64,000 nt of DNA from Bilabrum cf. latius (GCA_965178125.1 OZ237744.1:930001-994000); one strand, 5' to 3'; counted from the stretch's first letter, positions 3,766 to 34,735 are shown. The notes: a model not told the origin generated them from the sequence alone. A program made the numbers and translations.

Positions 3766-6700
3766 TCATACCTGGTCTTCATCAGACTCAGCTCCTGCAC
3801 CGCCCTCTGCGGCGCCGGCTGCCGAGCCAGCTCCTTGGCCATCGCTAACTGCCACTCCGGCCCCGCGCTGTACCGACTCGTACGCAGACATCCACCGCAA
3901 CCGCGAGGAGAACTCAGCAGTGGCCCCGGGCTCGCTGCCAAAAAGGAGGGGGTCCGCAGGAGATCCGGTGCGAAGCTCGAACTTGAACGACACCCCCCGC
4001 AGGGTGACTGCAGGCCGGACTGCCGAGCAAGCAGCCGGGAGGCTTGACCTGCTGCCAACCCACTCGGTCCTCATGAGGCACATAGACTTCTCTTCGTCAG
4101 TCAGGTCCTCGAAATGCTTGCTACCCCCATCTGCATCGCTCTGAGCTGGGACCACCTGGTAGTAGCACGTGCCCGAGCTAGTGTCAAAGGCGCAGCGGAT
4201 GAGGTCGCCCTTCCCGATCTCCATTGATGGCACCGGACGCACCACATCCCCCCCATGGATGACTGCCCTCCGCCTTACCGACAGCCCGATTGAGTTCATG
4301 TCGTCACCGATGCCGTGATGCCCGGCGGCGAAGCCAAAGAAGCTACCTGCGGCCCAGCCAATGGCAGCCGCCCCTTCTTCCAGCACCCTCAGCTCGTACA
4401 CCACGATACCCCCGCTGGCGCGGTCCCGTGTCGGCAGCGAGACCATGCCAACCAATATGGTTGGGTGCTCCTCATCTCCTGTCGGTTCATCAGCCGTGGC
4501 ATCCTCGTCGCCACCGCCGAAGCGGTGCATGTGCCGGCGCTGGGCTCGTCTGCGGTGTCTAGTGGCCTGTGTCACTCGGCTCTGCAGCGCTTCAGACATT
4601 GCCTGCTCTGGGTTCTCCGCAAGGTCCACGCCGGAACGACTCGCCACGGTGCCCTTGTCCTGGTTGATCTTCACGATCGTGCCGCACTGCGCCCCGGCAA
4701 ATAGAGGCAGCCTCTTGCCACTCTCCACGTGTGCCTGTATTTGTGGTACGCAGCCGGCGTGCGACTCCGCACGCATGAGTTGTGGCGGCGTCGACAGCTC
4801 AATATCGACCGACGAAGCCGAGGCCGGGTCATCGCCGTCGGCACTCGCCTTGGCCGCGGCGGCTGCAGCCAGCTGCTTTTCGTACCCACGCACGAGCGAA
4901 GACCTCGTCCCGAGCTGTCTCTGGTACGCAGCAGATCGCTCCACGATCCACAAGCCGACAGGTTTGTAGCTGTCGCTAGGTGGAGCATGCTTGAATCTCC
5001 GCTGCCCGATGTTGAATCGGACGGCCATTGGAGCGTGGAGAGTAACCGCGGGGGTGAGCCCCATTGGGCCTGGCCGCACGTTGTGGTACGCGAGGCCCCA
5101 CGGGCCGTCCCACTTGCCATTGAGGCCCATGCTGATCGTGCCTGTGCTCATATCGATGCACACTCCGATGGTGTTGCCTGGGGACGCCCAGTCGGCACCG
5201 AACCCCGCAGTCGCACCCACCATCGGGAAGGGTTCCACCTCGTTCGAGATGTCATCCAACTCGAAGTCAGCACCGCCTTCGGCTTCATCATCTTCGTCAT
5301 CGCCATCATTCCCGCCAGCGCTACCACCAGCTGACACGCTCTCGGCCTCCCGCCGTGCCCTCATGCCTTCGTTCACCTGGCGCTGGGCCTCGTCGTACTC
5401 CAGGCCAGCAGCAAGGGCGGCCGCAAGCAGACTCGACCGCTCCTCGTCATCCGCTGCACGGCGGGCAGCCTCCTCCGCGGCCCTAGCAGCGCGCTGCTCT
5501 TCCGTCATCGCCTCGGCTGCAGCTCTGCGGGCGCGCGCCAGCTCTCTGGCCTAGCGTCGCCGCCTCCTGTGCACGTCACGCTACATCTGCGCCATGTCAG
5601 CGTCCGTCGGCGTGTGACCGAAGAATTTCGAGAACGCACGGATGTAGACGTCGGGATGATACGCCTTGAGCATGGGCAGGTGCGCGTGAGTGACAGGCAG
5701 GTCCGTCATCCGGAGCCGCTCACCGTACTCGGCCGGGTGCGAGAGGCCGTAGAGCAGCCTTCCGCGGTTGCCAGTGATGTTGTCATTCACGGGGCCGCTG
5801 TGGTCTCTCGCAGCAAACCCGACCTGGACGAACGATGGAACCATGGCTTTGCAAATGGCCTAGGATTCCTCCGACATGGACACTTTCAAATAGCGCCGGG
5901 CCACTGCTTCGGTAGAACTCACGTGCTGAGCCAGCGTGCCCTCGCATGCCATGGATTCTGCACGAGACATCATGCCGGCACCGACGGGATCCAATACATC
6001 TACCTCGAAGTACCACTTGCCGCGGTGGATGGCAATACCTCGAAGTTCTGCTGCACCCACGAGACCGACTTGCGTGGTGGCCGCGGAAGCATCGATGAAA
6101 ACAGAACCATCGGGCCGTGTCTGCACGCCATAGCTGCCCTGGGCAGCGATCGGCTGACCAGCTGCAAGCCCAACAGCGCGCACCAAACGTACCTCGCGCA
6201 GCCGCTCAATTTGGCGGTACACAGACCCGGCAGTGCGGAACGGCGGGTTGTACCGGAAGGACGCATCGCCGAAGTTGAGCTCGAGGGAAACGGCCGCGTC
6301 CATGCTCACAACTGGCAGTACACCCTCCGTGCCGGACAGCACGAGGCACACACCAGCCAATTCTGCTTGCTCATCGTCTGACCCAACCTATCTGCGTGGG
6401 CACCCTTCTGGAAGATTGCCACACGTGCCTACAACAGAACCGTTCACAGTGAACACGGCAGCACCGTTCGTGCAGTCGAAGGCTGCCCCAATCACATCGC
6501 CAGTCTTCCAGACTATGCCGGCCGTCTGCACGTCCTCCGATGCTGCCACTGGAGCCAACTTGCGACCAGCAACCCACACGCAACCATCGGCACCAAGCGC
6601 AACGCCACTATCCTCCCCTCCCATGCCAGCGCCGATTCCAGTCCTCACGCTTCCCTTGAAGCTCGCCAGCGCGAACCCTACGGTTCCGCAAGGAAACTCG

Positions 6701-9700
6701 CTACGATCCGTTGCTGGGACGGCCGTCGCACCGGCTTGCGGCGGTAGGGCATGACCACCAGCGGAGTTGCACCGGATCACTGTGGCCTCGAAGTAGTGCA
6801 TGCCAGAATCCGGGGCTAGCACAGTGGCACGAGGAGCAATGGTCACGCAAGAACCCCGAAGATTAGGCGAGCTGACCAAGACCCCGCCGCGCACCAGCGC
6901 AGGGCCTCCCGAAGTAACCAGCGGCTCCCCGATGTCCCACTACCGCCTGGCCTGCAGGTGCAGGGCATCCTCACCAGCGTACGTGCCTTGCCGTTCCAAG
7001 GGCGGAGCCACGTCGCCTTCTGACTGAAAAGCACCACCACCAGACGTCAGCTGCATCAGCTCCTTGGGTCCGGCCGCCTTGCCCTGCCTATTGAGCAGGT
7101 CCTCAAGGGCCCTCTGCGCCTCTTCCTCAGCGCGAGCATCCTCCTCACGAGCATCCATCGCCTTATTCACCGCAGCGAGGTACCTCGCAACCCGGCGCGT
7201 GCTCTTGGCAGACTCCGAATCGGTCTGGTTCAGCACGTTGAGCTTCTGCTCCCTCGGATCCGGAGGAATGAGGGTGGCCGTAAACAGGCTCCTCGAGATG
7301 AAGCCAGCACCGTCAGCAGATGCTGTGTGCATCAGCAGCTCTGCCACCTCCTCCGGCTTGATCTCAGCAGCAAGCAGGCCCAAGATTGCCCGCTGCAGGG
7401 CAGAGGGAGGCAGATAGTTGCTCCCGCTACCGAAGCCGAGGCCCTCGAGTGCAGCCGTGACGCCACCGAACTGCCTGGCGAGTCCCATTCTGACTCTGCT
7501 GGCAATAGAGCGCATGCGAGAAAACTGTTCGCCCTCGCGCTTGGACAGAGCAGGGGAGATCGGCGCAACCTCGTACCCGACAGTTTCACGTCGCCTCTTC
7601 GTCTGCATCCTGGAGAAAAATGCAGCGCGATCCTCTGGGCTGCTTTCGGAGAGACCAGCCATGAGATAAGCCAGCTGCACCTCCGTGTAGGCCACCTGAA
7701 GGTCGAAGTACCGAGCGGATTGCGTTGGGAGCTCCCACTTGTCGACCCGAGTCAGCCCGACAACGCGACCCTTCTGCACCGCGAGCACGCGATCATTGTC
7801 CTCTTCAGCGGTGGCACTTGCGCTCCCGGCAGCTGTTGCTGAGGCTGCATCAGGCGTAGCGGGTGGCTCCGCGCCTGCTGCTGCCGGGGCACTAGCCTCA
7901 GCGCTCGTGCCAGATCCAGCAATCAGCGCGAGACCCTCTTCCTTGCTTGAGAGTACTGAAGTCTCCTCCACCTGTTCCTCGAACTCTCCCTGAGGGTGCC
8001 TTGGGTCGTCAGTGCGCTCATCCAGAAGGCGACCATCCGTCGTCCACAGCTGGACTACGGCAGCGTGGAGCGTGGATCCGGTCCTGGTAACGTCTCTCGC
8101 ATCGATTAGGAACGGGTTGCGAAGGTGCATGGCGCGTCGAACAGCCGCCGCCTCTTCCAAGTTGATCGTCGCAAGGCACCAAGGCTTCTCTTGCTCCGGC
8201 TGCTCCGATGCAGGAACTGCACCGGAGCCGTCTGCAGCAGGCTCAGCCCACACGGCGCGGCTCACGCGGGCACCGACGGCAGTCTGGGTGGCTCCACCCG
8301 TCTGCTCGGTATGTCTCTCCTCGTCCTCAGAGTCGCTGTCGTCCTGGTCGCCCCTCAGGTGCTCGGGCAGCACCCGTGCATTGCCGCTAGACCCTGCCGG
8401 CTTCCATCGCATGATTACGACGACGTTCTTGAGTGGCCACATGGGCATCGTGTACACGAAGCTCGTGGGCGGCGTGTGGTTCCAAGTGCTGTACATGGAC
8501 GTGGGCAGGTTCACGTTCTACATGTCCTCCCACAGCCTGATGTCCTTGGTCAGCAGCCACTCGGAGCGTTTGACCACGACGTGCTTGCCCATTGTGCCGC
8601 GGTCGTCCGTCGCCCCTTCGCCGCTCGGCGCGGCCATTGCATACAGCGACCACTGACGAGGGTTCTTGGCGAAGTCACGGTCGGCACCGGCCCTCACAAC
8701 TTCCTTCTCGACCTCCTCCTCCTACTCCTGTTCCTTCTCCTGCTGCTTCTCCTGCTGGAGCTCCTGCTCCTGCACGGTCTCCGTGTCCAACGCAAGCGTG
8801 CGGGCAGCCGCAAGCTCGGCCTCGTCACCCTTCTCGGCCTCGGCGCCCACGGAGGACGGGTCGTCCCCGAGCGCCTCCTTCCCCGCTGCCTCACGCTCTT
8901 TCTTGGCCAGCATGGCCGCCTTGCGAACGTGCTTAACCTCGGCAGACGCAATGATGCCGATGTCGCGTGCCGCAGCGGCCGCCTCCTCCATGGCGTACTT
9001 CACCCGTGCCTCTGCCTCGTGCCCAGTGACCAAATCAGTCCACTTTTGCAGCTCGACCTGCAGCCGCTCCTTGAAGCCGACTGGCGGGTCGATGGTCCCT
9101 GCCACGTCAAACCGCAAGGGGTCAAGGTACGCCTGCACGCAGCGTGAGCCTCTCTTCTCTGGACCAAGCTTCGCCACGATGGCCGAATCGTCCAAGCCAA
9201 TCGAGGTGAGAGTAGATACCACACCGCCGGACATCTTGGCAGCAGCGTCCGGGTCGCTCTGCGCTGCGCGCAGCGCATCCGCAGGAGCAGCTCGTTTCAC
9301 CGTGCGCGCGACCTGCATGCGGCTGTACAGCTCCTCTTGGTCGGGGAGAGACTCCACAGCAGTTGGCCGCTGGAATCGAGTAGTAATTCCCTTCGTGCGG
9401 ACTCCAGCCACAAGTCTTCGGATGTCTAGGCGGGCGATTGGCTCCTTGGAGATGGCAGGGACCCTAAGGGGCACGCTCTGCGTCTGCTGCACGGGCCACA
9501 TGGATGACCTGCGTGCTGGCAGCTTGTACGGTTCAGCCCACGGGGCGACGAAAGCGGCAACCTCTACGCCCTGAGGGGCGCTCATGGCTTGCACGTCACG
9601 GATGGCCGCGCGCCTCCACACGGCAGAGAGGTGCTGCATGGTAAGCTGCATCCTCTGCATGTGCTCCGAACGGATCGAGTTCGTGACAAGCCATGCAAGG

Positions 9701-12700
9701 ATGTCCGAAGTTAAAGAGTCGGTGGAGGCCACCGCCCGGATAAGTCTCCGCACCTCAGGAATAGCGATGATGCTGAGCCTCTATCCGCGCTCCAGCCCAC
9801 GCATGCGCCAGCAGCCCTGCGCATAGTCGCGAAGGGTCATGTCCTTGGACAGGGTCACGGCCGCCCTGGCGTCAAGGTTGAGCTTGATGTCCTGGCCCGT
9901 TGTGTGGTACTAATCGAAGAAGACAGAGTAGCTGACCGGGTCAAGACCGCAATCGGCGAGATCCACGACCCTACCAGTCGACCGCATCACGCACTTATGC
10001 TTGCCCGTTTCGTCGATAAACACGCAGCCCTCCTTGCGCCTTAGACCAGACTTGAGCAGGAATCTGGCCGTCTCTTCGTTGGACATGCCAGTGATCAGAG
10101 CCCCAGTGTCGATTAGCGCGTCAAAATTGGCCTGCGCGACCTGGACCAAAAGCCCACGGACGGACCAGTCGCTCAGATCACCATCGAATGGAGTGGTGAT
10201 CCTGGGGTCTGCGAGGATTCGGAGGATCTTGGCATCGCTGCCGGGCTCGTACTCGCACAGCATCCCCTGCGGCAGGATATTGGATGGCGTTCCGCTGAAT
10301 GCTGCACGCCGCAGGAAGAGCGTGTCGCCGCACACGTCCAGTCCAGTCGCAGTCAGCTTCGTATGCTGGTGCTGCATCACTGCGGGGAATACCATCCGCC
10401 GCAGGTAGTAGAGGATCACGCTAGGGCTGGAGGCAAGCACCGCGTGGATAGCCTGTAGCTGGGTGTTGCTCGCCATGTCAACCAGCGGCAGAGGTAAGAT
10501 TCCCTTGGCGTTCGCATGACCCTCCTCCAGCCAACCCTTGTCAAAGGTGCCAGTCAAGACCTCCATTGCAGTGGCCTTGGATGAGCCCTGGGTCCCTTGC
10601 CGGAGTGCCACCTCCCCTCCTTCCTCTGCCTTGGACTCCGATTCGGTTGGTTGTCCGCCACTGGACCCTCCGATATCCTCGAGAAGGGCCTGGGCGGCCG
10701 CGGGAACCGCGATACCCTCATCATCGAGAGTGGGATCGGCACCCGAGGCCTGCCTCGACAGAGGCGCCACATCGTCGCTGGCCCCGCCCGAGGCCAGGTC
10801 CAATGACATTTCGCGCCTTGTGATTGCGAACGGCAGGCGCCTACCGCCTCCATCTTCATCATCGCTGTCGTCGTCGTCGTCTCCATTCGAGAGACCCAGG
10901 CTGGGCAACCGAATCAGCTCAGCAAGGGCGGTCGGCCCGTCTCCTCGACCAGCGCCAGACGAATCCAGGCCTTCCTGGTCGTCAAGGCTGTTCGTACTGG
11001 ACTGCTTTCGGGCAAGCTGCACGATCTTCATGCCATCGGCGGCGTAATCACGCCTGGCCTCCTCAGCGGAGGCAGCCTCATCCAGCCACTTCTGGAAGAG
11101 TCGCGCGGCCGGCCTCTCCTCTGGCCTGCCCGTTTCTCGAGATAGATCCGACTTGAGGGCCTGTAGCACTGTAAGCATGTCCATGTATCGCATGCCTTCG
11201 TACCGGTATGCCATGACCGCAAGCCCAATCTAAATGTCAGGGTGGGCGAACTCGGAATTCTTGGAGGGTGTCTCACGACCCACAAAGGGAACGGCAAGCA
11301 CCGCGCGCGAGGTGGGTAGCCCTCTGGAGTCCTTCTGCCCAAAACCCGGGTCGCCCTCGTGCAGAAGCCCGTAAGAGACGCGGTCCACCCTCGAGAAGTA
11401 ATGCGGTGCAAACAGGTTGCAATGGTCCCTCGCAAGGTTCAGCAGCTGGATCGTGTAGGCGGAGCAACTGGCGCGGATGTTAGCAGCTTGCTTGCTGCTT
11501 GCCCCTGCCTCGCCGACCATGAAGTCCAGAGCGTTGCTGCAAAGCTCACCGTCAAATGCCCACTTCTTCCTGTAGAAGTCTCTCGTTTCCTCCAAGTCAT
11601 CCGCAGCGCTGTCGTCATCGGCACCTGCACCTGACGCAGCACCGCCTGCCTCCTTGGATTCGGACGCACCAGTTGAAGCCTCGGCGGCCTCTGCAGTCTG
11701 GAAGTCCTGCTGGACACTTTCCTGCTTGAGAAGCCACATCATGGTCCACTTCGCCACAGGCCGCTTCAGCCTAGTGTGCCACAGGATGGGGTCCAGGAGT
11801 GTGATGTGGGGAGTGGTCTGGATGGCAAGCATGGCAATGCCACGACGCAGCTCGTCCCGGAGCTCGATCAGGATGTCTGCCGGCGTGCAGGGACCGCTGC
11901 CCGGACCACACGCGCCAGGTGGCAGTTCTCTCGGCCCGCTTGCCTGAGCGCGACGCCGCTGCTCATCCTCGACCTACTTTCGCTGTTGCTCCGCCTTCCT
12001 GCTCCTCTTCATCTCCTCGGTGACGGTCTTCTTGCCCTTCTAGCCCCGCTTGCGTCGTTTCTTCTTGCCTTGATGCTCGTCCATTCCAGGCGTGGCCGTG
12101 TGGGCCATCTCGTTCGCCTTCTTGATCTCCTCAGTGGGCTCGACGTGCTCGTTGCTTTCGCCCGGCACCTGCGGCGGTGGGCCTCCCGCGGCCAGCGTCT
12201 CGGGTGCACAGCACGCCAGGAACCCGCCGATCATGTGCATCGGGAGGTTCCACCGGTCTGGGCTCATGGCTAGCGGGTCCTTCTGCCCGACGGGGTAGTT
12301 TAACTCGGACTTAAGAGGGTGCATACACACGTCGATCTCGTCGATCAGAGCGCATCCCCGCGACCGCTCGCCCCAAAGCGACATTAAGTCACGAAGAACA
12401 TCGGCAAGTGCATCTAAGGCCCGGACACGAACAGCTTCCTGATCCACTTGCCACCTGAGCTCACCGTCCATGATCGTCTCGGGCGGGATAAATACGTGCG
12501 GAGGGGCTGCGCGCACCTGCTGCAGCAGATCCATGTACTGCAGGAAGGCAGACTTGATGCTCTCTGGAGTGGCAGCCACTACGTTGCCTGTATCTCTCGC
12601 CCAGCGGAGGCGGTCCACCTGCCGCTGCAGGTGCGACACCCAGCAGAGAATCTTGTCAACGGCAGTGGCCGTCGCATTTGCGTTCCACCCGCGCACCGTC

Positions 12701-15700
12701 AGCTTGAAGCTGTCTTCACAGTCCATGAGCGGCACGGCCCCGACAGATCGGCCCGTGAACGACAGCCGGATAGACCTCTCATCATCAGGCCAACCCTTGT
12801 AGCTGTTGATCTGCCGAACCAGCCCTTGGTGGGCATCACCGGCGCCCCCGGCCGCTGATTCAGCCCCTCGCTTCACCGCAGCCTCATGCTCGGCCTCTTG
12901 CTTGGCGATTGCTTCGTCTCTAGCCGTCTTGGCCTCCGTGTACTCCAGGTGGTACTCGACCAGTCCTGCTGCCTGCTCGGGGGTAATGATGCCCGACATT
13001 GCCATCTCCTGCACCGTTTCGAATGGCAGCAGAGTCACATCGTCCGACTGGATGAGCATCTGCAGCGTCTCTGACACTTGTGCCGATGGGGTGGGCAGTG
13101 CTGGCAGCTGCGAAGTCGACCCGGTGGCCCCCAGAGCGACCCAATTCGTTGGGTCGCGCTCCTCATACCCGAAGCCCTCCACTGGATGAGCATCCTGCAA
13201 GCCTCTCAGGCTGCTGTCGATCATGGGATGGCCGCCTGCAGCACCCCGGACTGACTGGGGCCCGAACAGCTTGTCTGGCCTCTCTCTCGCCTGCCGGTCC
13301 ATGGCCAACGCGCGGCCCATGGAGCGCAGCGAAGGCAGCGAGAACCTCTCGAAGTGGAAGGTCAGCACCATGCGGCGGAGGAACGGGGCGGACAGAACCG
13401 CCCTGGTCACGCGCCTGGACATATCGAGAAGAGAGGCTGGCATTACCTGCGTGACCATGGACTGTCCATCGGCCAGCATCACCGATAAGCACGGGCTCAG
13501 CACAGTACTCTTACCTGCTCCCATAAGAAGCTGCTTGCAGGCGTTCGCAACTCGCTCCTTCCTCGCCGGGTCAGTAGGGTCCAACAGGGCTACCTCGACT
13601 GATTCCTTGAACTCCTGGATGGTCTGAACCTGTCGGCCGCGAAGCACGAATCCAGTGGCAAACTCAAAGGCAAGGAACCTGGGGTCGTAGTGGAACCTTC
13701 GGAAATCGTCGTCGCCAGTGGCTGCGCCACTGTCCTCGACAGGGAACATGTACCTTCGGGAGGCAGACATCATGTCGCTCAGTGCCTTACCAGTGGCCTC
13801 CAGCACAGATCCAGCCGCACCGAGCGTGTCAAGCGAGTGACCTGCCGCGGTCAAGACAGCAAAAGGATCCCTGGCACCGGGCTTGGGCGCCCATGTGTGG
13901 CGAGCAATGCGCTTGCCATCCACCACGCAGCCGTCCAGCAGCGAAACCACGGACTCGACGTGTTTCATCGTGGCCGTACTCCCTGCTGCTACAGGCCCGC
14001 TGGCTGCGAGCTCTGCCCAGCGCTCCAAGGCCATCGTGTCCAGAGCAAGGCATGCCTGCTGGGTCGCGGCAGCAACAGCGGCCGGCCCTGAGGCTCCTGC
14101 CATGGCAACATCTGGCGACTGCGCAAGGATGGCATCAGCCAGCTGAATCTACGCGCTGCCCCAAGCTCTTAGCGCCAGCACTGCCGCCTGCGGGTTGAAT
14201 TCGCAGTCCTCGAGCACTCGACGGACGGTCACGCTGCTCGGGGTTCGGGGCGCGGACGAGGCCGAGGCAGGGGATCCTGACCGCATTGCCTCTAGAAGCA
14301 GCGAGGCAGAATATCGCTCCTTGATCGCAGTCGCCAGCGCTCGCTCAATTTCCTTGCGGACGGACCTGGCCTGAGCGATGCTACGCGATGCCTGTGTCGA
14401 CCGCAGTGATCTCATGACGATGGCGCTCACCGCTTCGAGGGCCGACCGGCACGATGGCAAGGACAGCGATGGGTTGAGGCGCTGGAGCGCCCGATCGCCG
14501 CGCACAGACACAACCGCTCCGACTGCATACACGAACTCGGTGCGATCTCTCTCACCCCCGATCCTGTACATGGCATTCACATCGGCAGCAGTCGTAGTGG
14601 GTGCCCTCTTCTCATCGTTGAACATGCAGCACGCGTCGGCGATGGCTGCGCTGATGGCTGCCTGGTCGTCCTCTCGGACGGCAACAATCTCTTTCTCAAG
14701 CTCCACAAGGGCACGCCAAGTCGCAGCAATGGTGTCAGCATGAGCCAGCCAGCCGGCAGCGGGCATGGACTTGGAGTCGAGGAGAGGACCGACAGTGCTT
14801 GCCACGTCTACTGCGCCCAGCGCAAGCTCGATGGCCTCACCCTGAGCACCCTCGTCATCTGCACCAGACGCAGAACCAGCGGGACGCTCTTCAGAAGTAC
14901 CAGCTTTGCGTTTCTTTGCCGCATCCAGTCGAAGCTGGAGCAGCTTCTTCAGAGACTCCTTGCCAAGGGGCTCGGTCGCAGATTTCAGGGCCTCGGTGGG
15001 ACCACCATGCAGCAGCCGCAACAGCTTGCGGGTCGCGCCGTCTGCCGACTTTGAAGACTTCTGCGTGTCCTCCATGAGCCTCGCAAGCATCTCCCTGCCA
15101 ACAGCCGACTCCGCCTCGGCTGCACCGTTGATGTCAAACGGAAGCTTGTCTGACCAGGCTCCGTTCGGGTGTGCCGGGCTGCCCGGAGCAGCAACATTCA
15201 GCATGTAGCCGCCCTCAGGCGCAGACTCGCGGGCATCCATTGCACCCATAAGTACGTTGTTATTATACGTGTCCGCCCCGTTGCCGGACAAGACTCTCCG
15301 GCGCAAGAGCTCAAAGGGCTCTTCCGCATCGCTGCTAATCGCTGAGCTACCCGGCTACGGGAGGCGCGCCTCCCTGGAATCGCAGAGAGTGTCTAGCCTG
15401 GGCTGCGGGGGCCTCGGCTGGTCAGCAATGACGTCAACCATGCGAACGCGCTGGTTCAAAGTCGGCGTGTTCTGCGTCTCGAAATCGGCCGGTGGTCTGT
15501 TCAGGTGGTGCATTCGCAACGCACGGTCGATGGTAATCTGCACCACGCGGTCTAGGGCAGCCCAGTAGGACAGGGACCACTATCCCTCGGTAAATGTGAA
15601 CTGGCTAGTCTGACATCCCGTCCGCAAATGCACGGCCTGCTGCAGCAGAACCTGACACCGAGCCAGCGCGTCCAGCAGCGTGCCAGCCGGAGGGCCAAAT

Positions 15701-18700
15701 TGGTCGCTAAACGATCCGACGTCATCGCGAGGTAGGGCCATAGTTTGTCCCTCGTGCACGTTAGGCTGCAGCGTGAAGCCCTGCACGCCATACCTCGAGA
15801 ATCTCCACTCGTGCATGAGCTCCCGTTTAGGCACGCAGCGACCAGCGGCTACAGCTTCATCTAGGTCTTTGTCTACAAGCCTCATAATGGTTTCGCAAGT
15901 CAGCATCACGTTGGCCATGCTGCCACCAGTGCGCGCTGCAAAGCAGCTGGACTGGATGAAATGCCTCCGGTATGACTTTGGCAGCCAGAATGGCACGTCC
16001 AGCCCATCTGGTTTGCCGCCCGTCGGTTTGCAACCGAGGCCTTTCAGGTGAAGCAATCCCAAAAGATTGAACCACACCGGGATGATCTGACCTGCGTTGA
16101 TGGTAACAGTCTCTGGCGAGGAAGCAATCAAGCCATTCACCATGCCTACACTCTGCTTGCAGGTGTTCTGGAAGAAACTGTTGGTGAATTGGTAGGTTGC
16201 GTGGTGTCTGACCTCAGCCTCGGTGTCGTACGACCTGTGCATCCCAGCCTCTGACGATCTCCGGTTATGGCGATGCCTATCGACTGCACCGTGCCACTGG
16301 AAGTGAGACCCCCGCAAGCTTTGGTCTAGCATCTGCCCACCGTTCTGCCACACATCAGGACTAACCTCGAACTCAACAATTGGCTGCACTCGCCCAGCCG
16401 CCGGCATATCCGGACGGCTGCGCATGGTGTCGCTGGATGACTCATGGCAGTAGGTGCTGTACTGCTCTACCGCAGACGCGTTCTGCAGGAACGTCTGGGC
16501 TACCACTTCGTGAGACACGAGGTCAGACTGCGACTCTGCAAGCGCTTGCCCGCTCCAAGCATTCACCGCGTTGGCCTCTTGCACATTCTTTGCGGACAGT
16601 CTCAGGTGCCGCAGCAAACGGACCGAGCTGCCCGGCGACCACACGTGCTTGTCGGCATGCACAATGTCAGGGTGCTCCCTGAAGCCCTGCACCGTGTATT
16701 TGGCCGGTGCAGCTGCCAGAGCTGCTGCACTAGCACTGCCTCCAGGTCCTGCAGCGGCACCACCTACCGCTGCTTCAGGGCTAGCAGCGCCATCATCAGC
16801 GAGGGAGATTGAGCGGATAGTCCCAGTGGGCGCAGCTTGTAGGCCTTGCTGTGGGACGTCCGTCTCGTATCGTCGCATGCATGCGTGAGCCGGAGCAAAA
16901 CCGCTCATTACCACACTAAAGTTGCAGCTGGCGATGGTCGTCCTCCAGTCCTAATACTGGGCCTTTTTGGTATCGCAGCGAACTACCACATAGAGCCGAT
17001 CGCCGGGCAGCTCGAAGTTGAGGCTGCGATCCATTAGCAAGGTGGGCTTGCCATGCAGAGACCTTGCGTTCACAGATGCAGCCGTGACAGGAAGCCGGAG
17101 GTCTTTGTCGTAGTACATAGCGATGGAAACCTGCTTCTACGACGCGGTATTTGCTCGCACATAGCAACTATCGCAGCCCGGCAGCACCATCTCCACGACC
17201 GTCTCAAAGCGCTCCCCAGGGATAGTCGTGCTGCTTGCGAAGTAGCCAGATGTAAAGGAGCATTGGACAGGGATCAGCGGCGTGATGAATCTTGACGCAC
17301 CAGCTCGGGAGCTGGAAGCACCGGCACCGCTCGCGGCGAACGTGCCTGCGCTCTCGTCGTCTGCACCTGCGGGTGACGCACCGGACACGGCCTGCAAGAC
17401 CTTGGCGTCCTCCATCGACTTGAAGGCAATGAGCTCCTGCCCCAGTACACGTTCGCCGGAACCCGCGTCTGCAGCCTTGGACGCCTTCACGACGGCCGTC
17501 TTTCCGACCTCGGTAGCGTGCATCAGTGCCGCCACCAGCCTGCCCTGGTGCTGCGTCAGGAAAAAGTTCCGATGCATCTCGAGTTCATCTTCATGAGACG
17601 GCAACGCATGGGACTAGATTGCGTCAAAAGTATCATAGAGCGTTTTATGCAACTGCTGGAACCTTTGCTGAGCCACACCACCGTAGCTGTTGGCTGCAGG
17701 TGCGGTGATGAACTTGAACAAGTTGTGCTTCGGGTCGTCACCAGCCGCCACGCCAAACAGAAGCCTGGAAAGGTAAATCCAGATCTTCATCCTTACTGTC
17801 AGTGCGTCCGGATACATGTCAGAAGATACCGCTGCGTTGAACGCAATCTACATGAGCAAGGCCTTCTCCCGAGCCGAGCACACGTCGTCGATAGCACACG
17901 CTGGCAGGATACCGTGCGCTGCCCGTGTGTCCCGGGCGAAGAGGGCTTGTCTTAGTAGGAACAAAGAGGCTTCGGCCGAGGGGGTGAGCGGGAACGCAAG
18001 CGAGTCGTGCATGCCCAGGAGGTGGTACCTCTTGTCGACCTGCGGTGCGCGGGCTAGGGCACCGAGGTCCGGCTACCTTGCAGTCAAGAACGGGCACTCC
18101 ACAACCTGCAGCCAATTGTCAGTTGTGTTAGGCACCAGCACGCTCAACTTGCCTTCCCTGTCCTCCAGCAGCAACGAATTAGGGTTCCATCGGGCCATGG
18201 CGCCCAGCTCGAACGGCCTTCGGTCACTCAGAAACCTGCCTGCCAGCTCTCTGCACTCCGCACGGAACGCACGCCTGGAGTGGTCCCCGCCGCTACCAGC
18301 GAGGATGGCGCCGGGCACGTCAGGCGTAACCGGCACAATATTGAAGCGCAATTCGAGGCCCGGCAGCTCCACGTGCGTTACTGCCACGTCATGGGACGGA
18401 ACGACGGCGTACCCCTCGCCCACCAATCCATCGCTGCCGTCGCAGTCCTGGAAGGCCGGCCTGGCGGAATCACCGTGAGACCAGAACAGCGTGTCACCCG
18501 CGCTCTGCACTCGCACGAACGCATCAAACATGCGCGCGACAGGCGAGCCAGCCCTAGAACGCATGGGGTTGACCAACTGGTCGCACATGATGGGTCGCAT
18601 CCGCTTCGCCGCTTCGTCCGCATCCGATGCGCGAGTCGGGTCAGTCTTGTCAGCGACAGATTCGGCACGCTTCATCATGAGCGTAGAGGAGGAGCCCCCG

Positions 18701-21700
18701 CGGGAACTGCCACCCTTACCGGACATAGCCTGGTCATCAAGCATGATCTTGGCTTTTCGCAGCTCGGCGTTTGCCTTTGCGTCCTGCTCGCGCAGCCAGA
18801 ACTCAACGAAGTCGGGCGCCTCGAAGCGCCGGATCTGAGCTTCCACCTCGGTGATCTGCACGGTCCCGAGCTCGCGCATGGCCGCGCCATCCGGGGGTAG
18901 CACCGCTGTATCGTTGCCTGTCTCCTGGCGCTGCAACTCCGCATCCCCGGCATCTGCGGTCTCGGCATCAGTGGCAGCGACTTCGAAGGCTGGGTCGCTC
19001 TTCAGCACGAGGGGGTCAGTCTCCCTCACACCAGCGTACGTGACTGGCCTGATCTCGATATAAAGCACGGTGGATTTCACAGATTGCGGCGGGGGAGATC
19101 CCGCCGTGGTGGTGTGGCGAGGGTACCCGACGAGCCGCACCCGCTTCGCGCGAGACGTAAAGTTCACGACGCCTCCTTCTTCCTGGAGGTCTCGCATCGC
19201 CGCCTCACCTTCACCGACTCGCGCTTCCTCGGCCTGCTCCATGATGCGCCAGATTGCGTAGTACCTTGTCAGCACAGCCGGGAGCACCCCCTCAAGCTCA
19301 TAGCAGGACACGAACGTCTCGCTCCCGATCAACCTGTGGATCTGCTCGTGCGGGCTCAGGCCTGGCATGAGCGCCGCCTCGCGGCTGGTGGCCAGCGACT
19401 CTCGCCGGATGACCGCATGGGCATAGCCAACCGCTCGATTGCGACCACTCGACACAAACTGGCTGTACATGTGCACACCACTTGTGAGACTGCTCATTTC
19501 TGCATACCTGAACTTGGTCAGGATGTCCCAAACTTTCCGGCGCTGCATCAGCGCCGTGTCCATCTGGTCCTTCACCTCGAGACTGAACCGGCGGTCCGTC
19601 GCAAACATGAGCTTGCGCGACACGCGGCGGCCGCTCTCAGTCAGGATAAACATCTGCAGCTGCGACCTGTACCCTGCACCGCGGCCCCCGAGCACCTGGA
19701 TTTCTATCCAATGGCCCTGCAGCGTGTTGTCAGGAATTGCGTAAGGGAAGCCCCCGGTGTTGTAGGCGTTCACGTTGTAGAAGAGAAGCACTCTTCCCAG
19801 GACTGGCGGTGCTGCGCCCAGGTCCTCGTCGACGAGCTTGCCGCTGCTGACAAAAGCCCTCTCCTCCTCCTCAGCGGCAGCCATCGCCTCAGGAAGGCCG
19901 TCCGACATCCATGACGCCGTCCATAGGGACGGCTTGTACTGCGCATACCCCGGGTTGGCCGGCGGCAAGACAACCTCTGTGTCGATCCACTGCCCGAGAG
20001 GTTTGTCAAGGTTGACGAGCCTGCCCACCCAGCCGCACTGCTCGGGCTCATACCTCTGAGAGAAGCGCTGCCCTTGGAAGAACATCACGCCGCGCCAAGA
20101 GATTGGCGTGCCGTACTTGGTGACCGGCACGACGGCGGCTTCCTCCGCTGTGGATCCAAGGCCAGCGGTGGAGGCGATCTCCAGGCGCTTCTCGAGATCG
20201 TCGGGAAGCACGTCGTCCTGCAGATTCTGCCAGTTGGCCCGGTCTTGCTGGGATACTCCTCCCCGCTGGCGCAGGGATCTGCGGCCCATGGCACCGTCCA
20301 TTCCGGCGTTCACCTCCTCCTTGATGGGAAAGGGAAGCAGGGATGGGGGCTACAGTGCCTCCCGCGGCAGCTTGGTCATCGCAGAGAGCATCGTGTGGGA
20401 TCCGTGCATCGGTGCGGGGCCGTGCCAGCACTCGGCGAGGTACCTAGATCCTCCGAAGCGAACCTCGAACGTTGTCATATTGTCCGTTTCCGCCTTGATA
20501 CCTCCCAGCATAGTTGGCTGGGCCTGCTGAAAGCCGTTCAGAGTCTGAGCCATGTCGACCCACTCCTTCGAACCTGCAACATACGTAGGCACGCGCTGGA
20601 GAACGCTGTCGCCGATCTTCACCTCGGCCGACTGCAGAGAGACCTGGGTGGCTCCGGTCTGGTCCCTGAACAGCCCGGGCGTGCCCTGGGCGATCGCATC
20701 CGCTGCCGCACCAGCGACCGCCAGGGCCTCGTGCGCCCTGTCGGGGTCCTCGCGGATCAGCTTCTCCGCTGCCTCCTCGTCGTTGTTGGTCAGGGACAGG
20801 GCCGCCTCGCATAGAGTGTACGTGATTTCTGGGTCGTCGCCGTCGCTCGTCTTGGACTCTCCGGCACCAGCCCCGGCGCCAGACGCTGCTTCGCCGGCAC
20901 CTGCCACAGTGCTCACGCCCGGCCCCTTGATGGCCTGGAACACGCGGCTTGCGGCATGGGGACTCACCGGCGCCTCCACTACGATACGCACGCCGAAACG
21001 CTCCGAGCCGGTGACCATGGTCGGACTTGCCCTCAGGCGCACCACGCACCTGTCCGTGGGCACCACAAGCGGAGGGTTCGTGCCGACACCGGGGAAGCCC
21101 ATGTCACCCCCGGACCGTTGCTGCTGGTACCTGCCGGTGAGAGCAGAGTCATGGGACCTGTACCCCGTGACAGGTCCCCACACCGACGTGCATGCCTCGT
21201 CACGGAACACGTGGGCCACGTCTCCAGGGTACAGAGAGGTCCGCTCGTCGAAGCGAAGGATGAGGAAGGGCGCCCCTGGGCACCGAAGCACGTAGATGTA
21301 GTCGTCCCCAGGCAGGTACGGGTGCGGTGTCTCCACTACCACTTGGCAACGGAGCGCGGCGGTGTTGTCTGCGAGCCAAAGCGCCCCCGGCGTGGGCTGC
21401 TGGGCCAACACCGAAGCAGCGAGGCTCTCGCACAGCTGGGACCTCGCTGCCACCCCCGCGGTTCCGACGACCTGGCAGATGCGGTGTCTCAGCCGAGCCA
21501 AGGCCGCAAACGGAGCCGTGCCGCCGAGCCCTCGAAACCCGTAGTCGTATATGAGCATCATGGCAGCCGCGGGCTGGCCATCCGCGTCGCGACCGAACTC
21601 GATCTCAGAGCTCGCGTCGTATCCGCGCTGGCCCTGCTAGATGTTCCCGGTGATCCCCGACCTCTAGCCGCGTCCGTCACGGTTGCGCCTGCCCCTGGTG

Positions 21701-24700
21701 ACGGCGTTCTGGGCGCGCTGCGCGATCTGCTGCACCGCCTGGATCCTGGTGTTGTCGCCCACATAGGCGCCGAACCGGCTCCGAATGGATCCCACCGCGG
21801 TGACCACGGCTTGTGACACGCCCATGTTGACTCCAGGGTCGTCAAGGTGTTGCACCAGCATGGCGCCGTGCGCCCTTATCTCGGCAAGTTTGTCGGCATC
21901 TGCCGGAAGCAGCCCACCGCGAGTTGAGCTGCTGGCCATCTCTGCGTACATGGCGGCGTTGGCCCGCTCTTGGTGCTTCTGCAGGTCGAACTCGTCTTCA
22001 ATCTGCTGCAGAAGGTCCAGGTCGTTGGTGGTGCCATCGATGTCCCCGGCAGCGAGCTTGGCTTCGAGCGACAGCAGTGCCTCGCTGGGGTCGGCCGCGT
22101 CGTCTTCTCCTTCGAACTTTGACTCGCTCGACCCAGCACCAGAAGTGGCAGTCACCGCATTGCTTCCAGACTTGGCACCAACCCCGGCACTGGTAGACCG
22201 CTGGGATGCCTTGCGGAGCAGCTGCGTCTCGAGCAGCATCATCTTGCGGCGGGCCGCGCCCAGGGTCCACAACCGCAGCCTGGCCAGCTGCGCCCTGGCC
22301 TCATGCGTGTTGGTCCCGTCAGGATCCTCCGCGAGCCTCCAACCGAAGCGGCTCCTGGCACTGGCCTCCTTGGCAATCAGCACGAGGAAGCCCTCCACCC
22401 TAGAAAGCAGCTGCACGAAGAAGAGCAGGTTCTCCGTCATGGCATCGGCGGTCTCTGGCGTGGTCAGGCCCTCGACCTCATGGGCCAGCTCGAGCAGCGG
22501 CCCCACGATGCCAGCAGGAGCACGCCTCAGTTCGTTCATCAGCAGACCCTCCTTGGTTCCGAGGCACGAGCGCTCCTCCGAAGTAAGAAGTGGGGCGCGA
22601 CGGACCTCGTCCGAGCCACGCCCAACACCCGCCACGTCGGGTCCGCTCGGCGCACCGTCAGCGGCACGGCGGGCCAGCTCGTCGTACGCGTCGTCCTCGA
22701 TGGCCTCCACTTCGGCGTCGTTCTCATCCTCTGCGTTGCCGTAGATCTCGGCGTCGGGTCCAGTGAGCGCAACGCGGGCGTCGGCCACACGCTACCGCGC
22801 CTGGGCCTGCCGGCGCCTACGGACGGCAGGCGGCTCCGACAGGTTGGAGTCGAAGAACTCCCTTGGCTCGAAGAGGACCCTCTCAAGTAGGGCGCGGATC
22901 CCAGGCGAAGAGCACAGGGAGGAGGCGCCTCTACGGGCCATGAAGCGCAGCACCAGCGGGATGCGAAGGTAGGGTACGCACAGCGCCTGCAGCAGGTGCT
23001 CGCCGTCCTCGGGCGACAGCGCGCCTTCGAAGGACGGCATGTCCTACGAGCGAACCACGACGTCCTCGCTCTCTGTCCAGCGCCACGGGCCGACTGCTTC
23101 GTACCCACCAGGTCTCGCGCCGGCCATGGGGCCGCCGAATTCGCCGCCATCGCGAGCAGAGCCGCCCCTCCCGGCAAAATCCCGAGCAAGCTGGTCCATC
23201 TCCGCGTCCACCCAAGGACCTTCATTGCGGCGGTTCGCGGCCGACCGAGCCTCGGCCAGCAATGGGATCGGCGAGCGGAAGAGCCCCCAGCGGTATCCAA
23301 CGGAGCGGTCGGGAGTCACGCTGAGGTTGCCCGGCGTGGTGGCCATCCAGAGGACCATGCGATCGCTGATTCGAATGCGGGACGGGTCCCCGAAGTTCAT
23401 CAGCGGCATTACCTTGGACGTGGAGCTTGACCCCGCATCCCTGGCTCCGCCCAATGCAAACTGCAGCTGAGGAGTCGGCACAGTGCATCCCTGCAGCATG
23501 GTCATGAGCATTGGAATGTCTCGGAACTGACCTACCTCGGGGCTGGAGGTACGTGTCCAGTCACGGATGTTGCCGGCGATGACGCGCTCCATTGGCATGC
23601 AAGCGTCCAGGGGTCGCCCACTAGAGTTGCCCCGCAGTTCGATGCCACAGCGCGTCGGACGACCAGATCGTGGCTGCCGCAGCTTGCCTTCACCGGTAAC
23701 TGCCGGCATCTCCGCCTCAGGAATTGGGATGCCGGCACCCCCAGCCGTTCTCGGACGCAGGAACCAGTCCATGATGACAAACTCCGGGTCTGTGTTGTTG
23801 AGGATCCACCGCCCAGCCATGGGATGCCACCGGGGATGCGAGAACCACCTGCTGAGCGGCTCGGCACCGCCAGACATGAGAGCCGTATAGTACGCCTGCA
23901 CGCAAGGCCTGGCAGAGGCGGCACCTGGGTGCGTCAACAGGGTGCCGGCAGTGATGGACGCGACGCTCTCGAATCCAGGGCACGTCGACCGCAGGTCAAA
24001 GAAGAAGGCAGGTCCCTGCTCCTCCGGCCGCAGTGGGCCAGACATGATGTCTCCGCGCAGGGCCCTAGTCACCGCCAGTGTGCCCTCGGGGCCCTCCGCT
24101 CTGGTCATCGCGACGGCGTTCCAGCACGCCAGGCACACGGATGCCGCCGTGTACACCTGCGCGACCTCGGCAGGCCGGCTGCCCACCATGTACCGAGCCG
24201 TGACGTACATCTGCAGCAGCTCGAAAAGAGCGCCGAGCACCGCGCGCTGATCCGTGAGGCTCATCCGCTGCGGCTGCCAGGGGTCCAGGCGCGCGGCCCG
24301 GAGCGTGTACTCTGTTAGCTCCTTGTGCACACCACCAGATAGGCGCTGCCGCACGGCCTGCTCTCCCCCCCTGTGCCTCGCCCTCGAGTCCACGACCTCG
24401 TGCCAAGGGAACGGGCACGGCAGCCGCTCCAGGAAGAGCTCCTCGAACAGGGCCACCACATCTACGCCGACCGCCTCCTTTGCGACGCTGTTCCCTCGGG
24501 AAAAGATGCCCCGGCAGTGGGTTACCGCGCGCTCCAGGACGCCCCGCGCGTCATGAAAGTTGCCGGGAAACGCAGGTCGCCCATCGGGCATGCGAGCGGG
24601 CTGCGGCCCCTCCAGCAGGTTGGGGAAAGGCTCTGCGCCCGTGGAGGTGTCGTGTCCCTGGAAGATCGTGGTGTCTCGCAAGTCAGCAAGGTGGTCGAAG

Positions 24701-26941
24701 CCGTGGTACCCTAGGGGCTTGCTCTTCACAGGACCGGTGAGGTGGAGCTCCGGCTGCATCAGCCGCTTGGGCCGGTCCTTCCACCACTCCTCCGACTCGA
24801 ACTCGCGCGCCTCGTCCACTGTCAGATGCAGCGCGTCCTCTGCGTCCATGCGGCACGCGAAGCTCTTGACGACGTGCGTGAGCTCCCGCACGTTGGCGAG
24901 CGAGTGGTCGTCCAGCTAGCCCTTCTCCCTGAGCTTCATTGCGGCCCTGGCGGTACCGCGCACCGCGATCTCCAGGAGGCGCGCCTCGAACTCGGCAAGC
25001 CCCTTGGGCTTGGGCTTGGGTGCAGTCACCATGGCAGTGGGCCCGCTCTCCTCCTCGTCCTCCGAGTCCTCGAGAAAGCCGCGCGTGCCGACCTGGATGC
25101 GGCTCTTCGCCACCTTCGCCATCGCCTTCCTCTTCTGCATCGCCTTCTTCTGTACCTTCTTCGATGTCTTGGCAAACCGTTTGGCCGCCTTGGCGGCCTC
25201 CTTCTTTGCCAGTTTCTTGGCAGCTTTTGCGCCTAGTTTGCGCCCCGCCACGGCATCTGCCCCTCCCACAGCTCCGCCAGTCGCGTTGCCGGTGGCAGCA
25301 GCGGCTTCATCGGAGGCACCTGCAGCCGACCAGTCGCCTGTGACAGCGCCCGATTCCGAGCTCTCCTCACCAGAAGCCGCAGCCTCTTTCCCTGACTTGG
25401 ACGCAGTCATTTTGACGCCAGCAGCGGCAGCCGAGACTTCGTCACCTGCACCTGCACCTGCACCCGCAGCAGCCGCCTTGCCTCCGTGGCCTCCAGCCTT
25501 GCCTCCCGCAGCGGCTTCCTTCCCGCCCTCGCTGCTCTGCATCGCTTCGAGGGCCGCCGCGCCCTTACTCCCGAGCGACGTGCTAGAGCCCCCTTCGGCT
25601 GCGTCGACTGCTGCCTGCATGGCCGCCGCGTCGGCATCCGAGGGCTCCCCCTCGCCGTCCTACTTTGGGGCTGCCAGGGCGCCTTCCAGCCTACCTTGGA
25701 TGGCATCGTCCTCGCCGCCCGCGCCGCTGCCTCCGCCCCCGCCCCCACCCGACCCCGTGGCAGGCTGGTCGGCGGTATGCTGGATGGTAGTCCCGCGCTG
25801 CGCTACCTGCGTAAGGTCCGGGACAGGGGCCGGCTTCCCGTCGATGTCGTTCCAGAGCCACTCCAGCTGGCCCCTGGCCACCAGCAGGTACTGCGCACGA
25901 ATGCCCAGCATGAGTTTCTTGCGCTGCTCTGCGTTAAGGCCTCGGCGCTCTGCCACGTACCGAATGCCGTTCAGAACCGAGCGGTGGTTGTCTGAGCCGC
26001 TCCTCCTCGGCTTGCAGAACGCCGGCTGCTTATCTTTGTGCTTCTCGATGATGTCGTGAAGCCTACCCCCGGCGAGCTCCGGAACCTGCACATCAAAATA
26101 ATGCTTAGTTGAAGTTTGAAGCTGCTGCACTCTCGGGCTGAGCAGCAGGTTGATGAGTGTGCCGGGGTCGATCAGCCTTTCCCGAGGGACGGGGAAGACC
26201 ACGCCAAGCCTATACCGGTTCGTGAGCCTAGCACCACCCAGGGCCGGCTCCATGTACTGCAATGCGTCCTACGATGATGAGCAGAACGCGACTTCGAATT
26301 GGTCTTCTGACACCCTCTCGGCGAACATCACGTGGGTCGAAGATTGGCTGCGAGGAAGCTTGAGAACGGGCAGTATCTGGGGTATCACGGGCGCCAGGTG
26401 GCATCTCCAGCGAAACAACAAGAAGTGCTGCATCGTAAACAATCGATTGGTCCATAGTTCTCCTGCTCACGTCGCTACAGGCAGCATTAGGCATCCCCCG
26501 ACCGCGACCGCTTCGAACGCTTCTGAGATCCTGATGTTCGTTCTACCGATAGAGCCAGGACCACGCCACAGCTTGTGCATTAGTGTCTCGAGTGCGAGAC
26601 CGCTGTCCAACAGGTCAGCACATTCCTTCGCTACGGCACGAATGGGGTCCGTCAGCCAAGGCAACGTAGTTGCATCTGAATCGGCTACCTGCCGCACAAT
26701 TGGAGCGAGTGACTGGTACGTTTGAAGAGGAAACCCAAACTAAAGGCTGGTAGCTGCAAGGGAGGGGATAAATGCCTGTTGTGGGTGGAGGCAAATAGGT
26801 ATGGTGCTCGAATGGATCCTGATGGTGAGCCCCTAGCACTTGAGCCTTACCTACAACGCTAGCGTCTGCAAACTCCCCAACAAAAGGAGCTGTAACCCAG
26901 CATCTCTCATTTTCATCCAGTTGGATTTTCTTTCGATCCAT
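3766..26941 (-). CDS. Giant (~7,650 aa) DUF3638/DUF3645 P-loop/helicase-like protein with CUB-like, UBA-like, EF-hand-like and C-terminal SPRY domains; exons 26941-26851, 26753-26471, 26347-3766
   Basis: All minus-strand fragments from 3766 to 26262 share one frame and are separated only by TAG (29 TAGs in total). Motifs: QLLMGAGKSTV, LIDEID, LAVPFVGRETPSKNSEFAHPD, FDALIDTGA, FFD(Q)YHTTGQDIK, DYAQGCWRMRGLERG(Q), VETPHPY, and SPRY-like GKWYFEV and GDVIGAAFD. Stop is TGA. The 5' exon structure is less certain. Confidence 0.88.
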
Positions 26942-28901: not shown

Positions 28902-29144
28902 TGTTGGCACAGTAGCAGATAAAATTGCTCGAGTTTCTGTTCGAACCAACAAGCTGTCTAACAGTTCCGGTTATTAGGCATGATGTGATGATTGCCGCGC
29001 GCTCAGCTCGTGGTCGCGCTGGCAGGCGAACGGAACTATCCCCTATCCTCAGCATTGTGGCTTCGACAGGCATTCGGTACTCCTTTTGTCAAGGTTCGAC
29101 CAATCGACGCAACTTGTACACGAATAAAGCAGTAAATTGTGAGT

Positions 29145-32120: not shown

Positions 32121-32268
32121 GGTTAGGAAAAAGAATAGAGGCCTGATTCTGGATCAGCTCTATTCTGCGCGGTTTCCCGGGTTCGCTTATGCCATCAGTG
32201 AACGTTCGTGTAGCCTTGGATTCCAAAATTCACTCCAAAATTCACCGCAAGTGCGAGCATCGCGCGTC

Positions 32269-34422: not shown

Positions 34423-34735
34423 GGCCTGGAATCACGCTATGTTCTTGTCATCTGCGGTTCTCGCCATGGCAAACCCGGAACTGCCAGTGGGCGAACCCAA
34501 CCCAACCGCACTGCTGGCAGCCACGGCCCTCGCACTGGCAGGCAGCCTGGCGCGGCGGAAAGGACCCCTGGGCATGGACTATGACACCATTTAATGCTAG
34601 CACAATTTGTGGCTTTTGTGTTCCGCGCAGTATGATGGCAGTTCAATCTCTATTTTCATTCGGACCGGCAACCACAAGACGCTCCGGCTCCTCAGGCTAC
34701 CGCCCATCTACCTCGGCCGCCCACGCCAACGGCAC

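Follow-up and report, generated by a model that had tools for sequence, protein, structure and literature searches.

The window analysed here, a stretch of 64,000 nucleotides deposited as Bilabrum cf. latius (GCA_965178125.1 OZ237744.1:930001-994000), contains a giant gene on the minus strand (3766..26433, from the first ATG to a TGA; 7,555 residues) whose reading frame includes 28 TAG codons. The window is very probably nuclear DNA of a GC-rich, gene-dense microbial eukaryote in which UAG encodes glutamine, and translation is terminated by UGA, in most cases, and by UAA. In the best explanation the 28 TAGs are ordinary rare glutamine codons within an uninterrupted coding sequence of 22.7 kb.

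The gene was originally noticed in a sequence-only reading as a single exon at 3766..26347 with 28 TAG and no TAA or TGA. A frame scan agrees with this and places the frame on the minus strand. Positions 3766-26347 hold 28 TAG and one TGA, the terminal one (3766..3768). The frame is bounded by the TGA at 26469-26467 and the TGA at 3768-3766, and no TAA and no internal TGA had been missed. The open frame reaches 26466 and not 26347. Some 7,500 consecutive codons had been claimed; 7,566 were counted with TAG as the sole nominal stop among them, and translation across the frame gives 7,567 codons, stop included. Numbered from 26466, codon 12 (26433) is the first ATG and codon 47 (26328) the second; the latter is an alternative start, and the 28 TAGs are all situated farther downstream. 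The first bases of the TAG codons, in plus coordinates, are 26271, 25662, 24918, 23046, 22794, 21666, 21639, 20352, 18075, 17850, 17616, 17139, 16953, 15582, 15357, 14151, 12042, 11976, 11232, 9912, 9783, 8724, 8520, 6942, 6390, 5862, 5583 and 5553, a minus-strand codon with the first base p occupying positions p-2..p. The three motifs quoted in the sequence-only reading are in place: FFD-TAG-YHTTG at 9912-9910, RMRGLERG-TAG at 9783-9781, and QQEKEQE-TAG-EEEV at 8724-8722.

The two other frames of the same strand contain, in the same DNA, 150 and 167 TGA, 19 and 21 TAA, and 35 and 44 TAG. The contrast goes far beyond what chance would give. Since the off-frames carry many of all three triplets, TGA and TAA have been purged from the giant frame by selection, and TAG has been tolerated. 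The coding periodicity is uniform, with GC fractions at the three codon positions (GC1, GC2, GC3) of ~0.65, ~0.50 and ~0.72 in each full 500-codon block, and the whole 22.7 kb looks coding. Past the terminal TGA the in-frame reading is non-coding in look and soon runs into TAGs. TAG accounts for about 8% of the glutamine codons of the gene. We infer that the giant gene is one exon and is transcribed as one unit.

The identity of the amino acid follows from conserved columns. The protein core, with TAG translated as X, was searched against 1.84 billion representatives; there were 4,009 matches, and column counts were made on the best 150 of these. At residue 5519 (FFD-TAG-YHTTG; 9910..9912, minus strand) the homologues have Q in 134 of 148 cases and H in 12. 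At residue 5562 (RMRGLERG-TAG-RLS; 9781..9783, minus strand) they have Q in 139 of 144. In an independent MAFFT alignment of the giant protein with ten full-length homologues, Q occurs at both sites in all ten. The sequence-only reading had named glutamine as the family residue at exactly these two positions. Both columns are also Q or H in seven further metagenome loci aligned to the window protein. Two short proteins of close relatives (82% and 89% identical) add one site each: P0222 has Q at residue 5079 and P0270 has Q at residue 5562.

The gene of a close relative is carried by a metagenome contig, L001 (3,141 bp, 57% GC), which was absent from the first metagenome scan and was recovered by the second. 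It contains three GT-AG introns at 1308-1484 (177 nt), 2641-2746 (106 nt) and 2781-2895 (115 nt). The spliced model has 914 codons with eight TAG, no TAA and no TGA, and 904 of its codons can be aligned with the window protein, to which they are 79% identical. All five alignable window TAGs face glutamine codons of L001, in a region where only 4.5% of codons are glutamine. Residue 5079 (HPDI-TAG-IGL, within DUF3645; 11230..11232, minus strand) faces CAG, as does residue 5562. Residue 5519 faces CA|G, a codon interrupted by the first intron, which is in phase 2. Residue 5915 (KEQE-TAG-EEE; 8722..8724, minus strand) faces CAA in the mini-exon of L001, in keeping with the earlier proposal of glutamine for this TAG within a Q/E run, and residue 5983 (WEDM-TAG-NVNLP; 8518..8520, minus strand) faces another CAA. 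In the reverse direction, four of the eight L001 TAGs face CAG in the window (5338, 5525, 5660, 5899).

A third comparison is internal to the window. It contains two paralogous genes of the RBR/IBR family, the E3 ligase gene RBR1 (32269..34431, minus strand; four in-frame TAG, TGA end) and RBR2 (55272..57482, minus strand; four TAG after the first ATG and three upstream of it, TGA end). At the DNA level GTA-TAG of RBR1 faces GTG-CAG of RBR2, directly after a near-identical tract. TAG is fixed as glutamine because the conserved Q columns, the codon exchange with L001 and this pair of paralogues agree. The earlier proposal of TAG as translated glutamine (table 15), and not as a mark of a pseudogene, is upheld by the Q columns, by the L001 codons, and by a frame in which no TAA or TGA had been overlooked.

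The same codon is found in most genes of the window. Open reading frames (ORFs) were reopened with TAA and TGA alone as stops, and codons were counted from the first ATG of each. The 14 ORFs, the giant gene included, comprise 18,359 codons with 81 TAG, 599 CAG and 144 CAA, so that TAG makes up ~10% of glutamine codons window-wide. The 13 other ORFs were scanned against Pfam with TAG as X, and ten of them contain families above the curated cut-off, in addition to the three families of the giant gene. The ten encode two RBR/IBR ligases, a purple acid phosphatase, a peptidase M3, an armadillo-repeat protein, a GHMP kinase, a WD40 protein, a PH/WW protein, a purine nucleoside phosphorylase (PNP) and polyubiquitin. 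TAG is a sense codon, and the trait is genome-wide.

Several observations weigh against the reading of TAG as glutamine. Firstly, no run recorded as RNA contains the giant gene, so that its translation and transcript structure are deduced from the DNA. Secondly, no tRNA of any kind was found in the 64-kb window (ARAGORN; Rfam). Thirdly, because TAA and TGA set the limits of the ORFs, none of them could end at TAG, and the window-wide test for missing TAA is partly circular. Fourthly, three of the L001 TAGs face AAG, GCC and GGG, one each, and one more is unaligned; the GCC- and GGG-facing ones lie in a poorly conserved stretch. Finally, alignment of homologues at the 28 sites, the check suggested in the sequence-only reading, speaks for glutamine at the two near-invariant columns, but most of the TAGs fall into variable, gapped or unalignable stretches and several into hydrophobic columns. 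In the MAFFT alignment residue 2798 is mostly V, residue 2873 is L, M or Q, and residue 6509 is L or V. At residue 5079, 143 of the best 150 homologues are aligned, with L in 61, V in 34, I in 17, T in 9, A in 8, Q in 7 and other residues in 7; in the MAFFT alignment Q at this column is confined to the two chlorarachniophytes, the other eight homologues having L, I, T or V.

One alternative is an ambiguous TAG, glutamine inside genes yet the terminator of some, by position or context. Ambiguous UAR or UGA codons occur in Condylostoma, karyorelicts and Blastocrithidia. Delimiting ORFs by TAA and TGA leaves room for genes that end in TAG, and RBR2 has a TAG 17 codons ahead of its TGA. However, the 28 TAGs of the giant gene are spread evenly over 22.7 kb, and all of them would need to be read efficiently. 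Moreover, the context of TAG is the same as that of CAG: the +4 base is A in.20, C in.28, G in.35 and T in.17 of cases, near the CAG values, and the -1 base is likewise CAG-like. In Iotanema spirale, the closest analogue, where UAG is also glutamine, no transcript ended in UAG (PMC5304391). An ambiguous TAG is thus quite improbable.

Very improbable too is a table-6 type of code, with both TAG and TAA as glutamine, TAA being rare through the high GC content, and TGA as the sole stop. Such codes are much commoner than UAG-only ones (PMC5304391, PMC11687900). Third-position A is disfavoured in the window, as CAA accounts for 15-19% of CAR codons. The terminators of the 14 ORFs are TGA in 11 cases and TAA in three, and, as defined here, no ORF could extend past a TAA. 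However, if TAA were glutamine with the preference seen in CAR codons (CAA share 19%), the 81 TAG should be accompanied by ~20 in-frame TAA, and there is none in the 18,359 codons (P ~2.6e-8). The giant gene, with a TGA at either end of its frame, is free of the circularity mentioned above, and it has no TAA against 28 TAG (P ~0.012). The 914 codons of L001 have eight TAG and again no TAA. Beyond the ORF ends the in-frame reading loses its coding look, also past the three TAA ends; in the PNP gene a second TAA stands 10 codons past the first and is followed by three consecutive TAGs.

It is highly improbable that TAG is a sense codon for an amino acid other than glutamine, such as Glu, Lys, Tyr, Ser or leucine, the last being the meaning of UAG in the rhizarian exLh. 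Leucine, valine and isoleucine do prevail at residue 5079 of distant homologues, columns 2798, 2873 and 6509 are mostly hydrophobic, and one L001 TAG faces AAG. Besides, the giant protein has its closest named homologues in rhizarians, and a rhizarian with UAG as leucine is known (PMC5304391). However, both near-invariant columns are Q, and all five window TAGs that can be compared, that of residue 5079 included, face CAG or CAA in L001. Four L001 TAGs face CAG in the window and none faces a codon for Leu, Glu, Tyr or Ser, and the pair of RBR paralogues also matches TAG with CAG.

Contigs of sequencing runs provide further copies of the giant gene. Seven runs, none of which is on record as RNA, contain at least half of the words sampled from a 10-kb piece. 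Contigs from four runs of three studies were compared with the window over 3700-23699, an interval of 20 kb with 25 of the 28 TAGs. The contigs agree with the window in every letter, and neither indels nor splice joints occur. Single contigs of the runs X1 and X5 span the entire interval. Pieces from X6 and X7, which are RNA by guess only, cover many TAGs, all of them unchanged. The contig depth in X6 and X7 decreases from 12.8 and 8.5 at the 3' end to 2.6 and 0.9 at the 5' end, and is flat in X1 and X5; however, parts of a gene cannot be ranked by the depth of contigs, and this gradient supports no inference. Nothing in the run contigs points to editing or splicing.

Processes similar to repeat-induced point mutation (RIP) turn CAG and TGG into TAG. 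It is hardly credible that the TAGs escape ordinary translation, as pseudogene or RIP lesions of the C-to-U type, targets of RNA editing or sites of programmed read-through: TAG is indeed one transition from CAG, but decay or RIP would also be expected to turn some of the 45 CAA codons into TAA and to leave TGA and frameshifts, and the 7,566 codons contain nothing of the sort, the pattern recurs in 11 further ORFs of the window, nine of them with Pfam families, L001 has its own TAGs at other glutamine sites, the contigs guessed to be RNA keep their TAGs (a weak point, the RNA status being a guess), and the TAGs share no context of the kind typical of read-through signals.

Given glutamine as the meaning of UAG, the codon would be decoded by a tRNA-Gln with the anticodon CUA, which cannot pair with UAA, as in the known codes of this type (PMC5304391). 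Such a tRNA would most simply be a mutated tRNA-Gln(CUG). The release factor eRF1 would have lost efficient recognition of UAG (PMC5304391). No Pfam match to a release-factor family was observed among the scanned ORFs of at least 250 codons in the window.

In L001 the introns and a mini-exon of 34 nt sit opposite positions 8700-9915 of the window, where the giant gene is intron-free. This difference points to a recent gain or loss of introns between close relatives. L001 is the exception among the 80 metagenome loci encoding homologues, as no convincing in-frame TAG was found in the other 79: there TAG bounds standard ORFs, and the TAG of L005 lies in an unaligned insert. The metagenome of L001 also contains a DUF3638/SPRY homologue (L068:1-5700) with 62% GC and 55% identity to the window protein over the aligned core. 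Its 1,788 codons include no in-frame TAG, and this stretch is free of introns; therefore a lineage with the standard reading and a similar gene coexists in this metagenome. In protein collections the gene of the close relative is represented by fragments of 133-189 residues only, one of which starts just past a TAG, and no full-length close relative was found among the matches for the giant protein.

The giant protein scores above the gathering thresholds of both DUF3638 and DUF3645, and of SPRY. DUF3638 (PF12340) covers residues 4304-4375 (13342..13557, minus strand; E 1.6e-14; 54.2 bits, cut-off 31), DUF3645 (PF12359) covers residues 5052-5082 (11221..11313, minus strand; E 5.9e-10; 38.8 bits, cut-off 25), and SPRY (PF00622) is present in two stretches, the best being residues 7094-7156 (4999..5187, minus strand; E 3.8e-14; 53.3 bits, cut-off 26.3). 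The first 3,800 residues contain no Pfam family at E <= 0.01. By eye, DUF3638 contains a Walker-A-like motif, GAGKST, and a Walker-B-like motif, DEID, is seen further on, near residue 4735.

The most conserved core, residues 5320-5640 (9547..10509, minus strand), has a predicted RecA-like alpha/beta fold. An AlphaFold2 model of it, based on a 32-row alignment, has a predicted local distance difference test score (pLDDT) of 79.9 and a predicted template modelling score (pTM) of 0.69. VIA-align compared this model with known structures, and all 50 listed rows are second RecA lobes of helicases and translocases of superfamily 2 (SF2), with Z of 6.0-7.7, which is a middling range. Foldseek gave no match to the model at E <= 0.001 (best E 0.019), and the PDB sequence search with the core gave no matches. 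The giant protein is probably an SF2-like NTPase with SPRY interaction domains, in which DUF3638 would be the Walker A/B lobe and the core would be the second RecA lobe.

The closest of the ten full-length homologues are those of Chlorarachnion reptans and Bigelowiella natans (P0002, P0003), with 48% identity over the core. These chlorarachniophyte proteins likewise combine DUF3638, DUF3645 and SPRY in more than 5,500 residues. The window protein is ~2,000 residues longer, has none of their EF-hand families, and contains 28 TAG codons in its gene. A relationship to the VTD deubiquitinase family, considered because of the architecture, found no backing in the passages of PMC9741609 that were searched. 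The name "ubiquitinyl hydrolase 1" is attached in UniRef to a single homologue and signifies no more than that.

The WD40-repeat gene (27093..28970, minus strand) has four in-frame TAG and ends in TGA. When its TAG sites and those of RBR1 were compared with solved homologues, they fell into variable columns and were uninformative. It is followed by the PH/WW ORF identified by Pfam (29319-30860, plus strand). The WW domain of this ORF (residues 28-56) lies upstream of its first ATG (codon 165), and an in-frame TGA stands immediately 5' of the ORF. Therefore the gene probably begins in an upstream exon, and the genome has some introns. The PNP gene (31053..32153, minus strand) contains no TAG and ends in TAA.

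Beyond RBR1, at higher coordinates, there are a purple acid phosphatase-like gene (35591..37246, minus strand; two in-frame TAG, TGA end) and a coiled-coil or low-complexity ORF assigned to no Pfam family (37257..40439, plus strand; 11 in-frame TAG, TGA end). The five-unit polyubiquitin gene (40773..42098, plus strand; TGA end) has the strongest third-position GC bias in the window (GC3 0.90), and after its first ATG there are 25 CAG, no CAA and no TAG. If this bias reflects high expression, the zero TAG count fits the avoidance of a rare codon in this gene. The ubiquitin units (40953-42098, plus strand) look unusually divergent from what we take to be canonical ubiquitin, for example in having Arg at positions 6 and 11. 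In the cluster atlas this gene falls into generic ubiquitin clusters only.

The peptidase M3 gene (42376..45519, minus strand; PF01432, E 8.4e-68) is homologous to thimet oligopeptidase and neurolysin, has three in-frame TAG and ends in TGA. The homologue search for it gave one match, a weak one. A TAG site of this gene faces Q in thimet oligopeptidase, but the segment is non-significant. The armadillo-repeat gene (45468..52367, plus strand) has ~2,270 codons with 14 in-frame TAG and ends in TAA. The GHMP-kinase gene (53226..55229, plus strand) has one TAG after its first ATG and one upstream of it, and ends in TGA. The upstream TAGs of this gene (53226-53345) and of RBR2 (57370-57482) probably belong to 5' leaders and are not coding. 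The last ORF, of ~1,640 codons (58733..63748, minus strand), has seven in-frame TAG, ends in TGA and contains no Pfam family.

The near-identical tract of the RBR genes covers the RING finger, at 33738-33845 in RBR1 and 56620-56727 in RBR2 (both minus strand), with three differences in ~107 nt, whereas the proteins are only 41% identical. It is likely a patch of gene conversion between genes situated 22 kb apart, which ends at the TAG/CAG pair.

The GC content of the window is 62%, and matching contigs reach 212 kb. The nearest named homologues overall are from chlorarachniophytes and stramenopiles. For PNP, a 96%-identical relative was found on a Logan contig, and the named neighbours, mostly stramenopiles and vertebrates, are 45-50% identical. 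In a single-gene tree the PNP of the window belongs to a clade of 13 rows (100/98), including a transcript from the MMETSP culture of Euplotes focardii; this clade stands at an unresolved fork beside two stramenopile groups. No inserted residue is present at the junctions of the polyubiquitin units. Such a residue is a marker of cercozoans and foraminiferans. On these sequence comparisons the organism would be placed no more finely than SAR-like.

Near-identical copies of the giant gene (0.81-1.00 of the sampled words) are present in runs under three organism labels from three studies, and small shares of it also in runs labelled as algae and as a protist metagenome. The organism may be an associate or a contaminant of others in culture. 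Two other origins were considered. An aphelid origin is rejected, as it disagrees with the GC content (~40% in Amoeboaphelidium genomes (PMC10608142) versus 62%) and with the reported code, UAR being glutamine there, and Amoeboaphelidium proteins are absent among the named matches. A giant virus finds no support as the source: no virus-specific Pfam family was noticed in the ten ORFs with any family, the scan of viral contigs yielded no relative, and L001 has introns of the spliceosomal type.

UAG and UAA nearly always change their meaning jointly. The few UAG-only reassignments in nuclear codes are those of Iotanema, a rhizarian, Scotinosphaera and some ciliates (PMC5304391, PMC11687900). Such cases bear on the question of how eRF1 and suppressor tRNAs distinguish UAG from UAA. 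Tentatively, and with a little less than an even chance, an undescribed GC-rich clade outside ciliates and fornicates, comprising at least two species, may have uncoupled UAG from UAA independently, with UGA as the main stop; its close relatives would exchange TAG with CAG and CAA freely and differ in intron content. If true, a further GC-rich lineage, with long contigs and a sister species that shares the trait, would represent an independent origin. It would also provide a genome-level system outside ciliates, where the changes in tRNA-Gln(CUA) and eRF1 could be read directly from the assembly, which evidently exists. In practical terms, gene prediction under the standard code will break the genes of this genome into pieces, such as those of 133-189 residues from the close relative. 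Annotation and homology searches need TAG as glutamine.

In the literature covered, which comprised few subscription journals, we found no report of UAG as glutamine in a GC-rich lineage other than ciliates and fornicates, and the chances that the code of this lineage is unreported are about even. The nuclear code of the fornicate Iotanema spirale has UAG as glutamine and UAA and UGA as stops (Panek et al. 2017, PMC5304391). This is the situation in the window, where UAG alone is reassigned, to the same amino acid, and both other stops are kept. In both cases the amino acid was deduced from glutamine at conserved columns, and UAG is scattered at low frequency, with 204 occurrences in 126 genes of Iotanema (PMC5304391) and 81 in 14 ORFs here. 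However, stop usage differs, UAA prevailing over UGA in Iotanema (104 versus 15; PMC5304391) and TGA over TAA in the window (11 versus three). Iotanema is an anaerobe from the gecko gut represented by a transcriptome, whereas the window comes from a genome with 62% GC and contigs up to 212 kb, and its homologues are nearest to those of chlorarachniophytes and stramenopiles.

Among ciliates, UAG alone encodes glutamine in two phyllopharyngean lineages and in Protocruzia tuzeti (McGowan et al. 2024, PMC11687900). These ciliates share the codon table of the window, UAA not being reassigned. Ciliate macronuclear genomes are AT-rich, and the phyllopharyngean ones are gene-sized. In composition and architecture, which are all that is compared here, the window differs by its 62% GC, contigs up to 212 kb, and the GT-AG introns of 106-177 nt in L001.

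The rhizarian exLh (Sainouroidea) has UAG as leucine and UAA and UGA as stops (PMC5304391). As in the window, UAG is decoupled from UAA, and among named homologues of the giant protein the best ones also come from rhizarians. However, the amino acid is leucine in exLh and glutamine in the window, whose polyubiquitin does not have the inserted residue. Table-6 codes are used by many ciliates, hexamitin diplomonads, some ulvophytes, Streblomastix and Amoeboaphelidium protococcarum. In these systems, as in the window, a stop is read as glutamine, presumably by a mutated tRNA-Gln, but in the window TAA is not a sense codon and ends three ORFs. The type of code is already known; the lineage, with its 62% GC and TGA-dominant stops, looks different.

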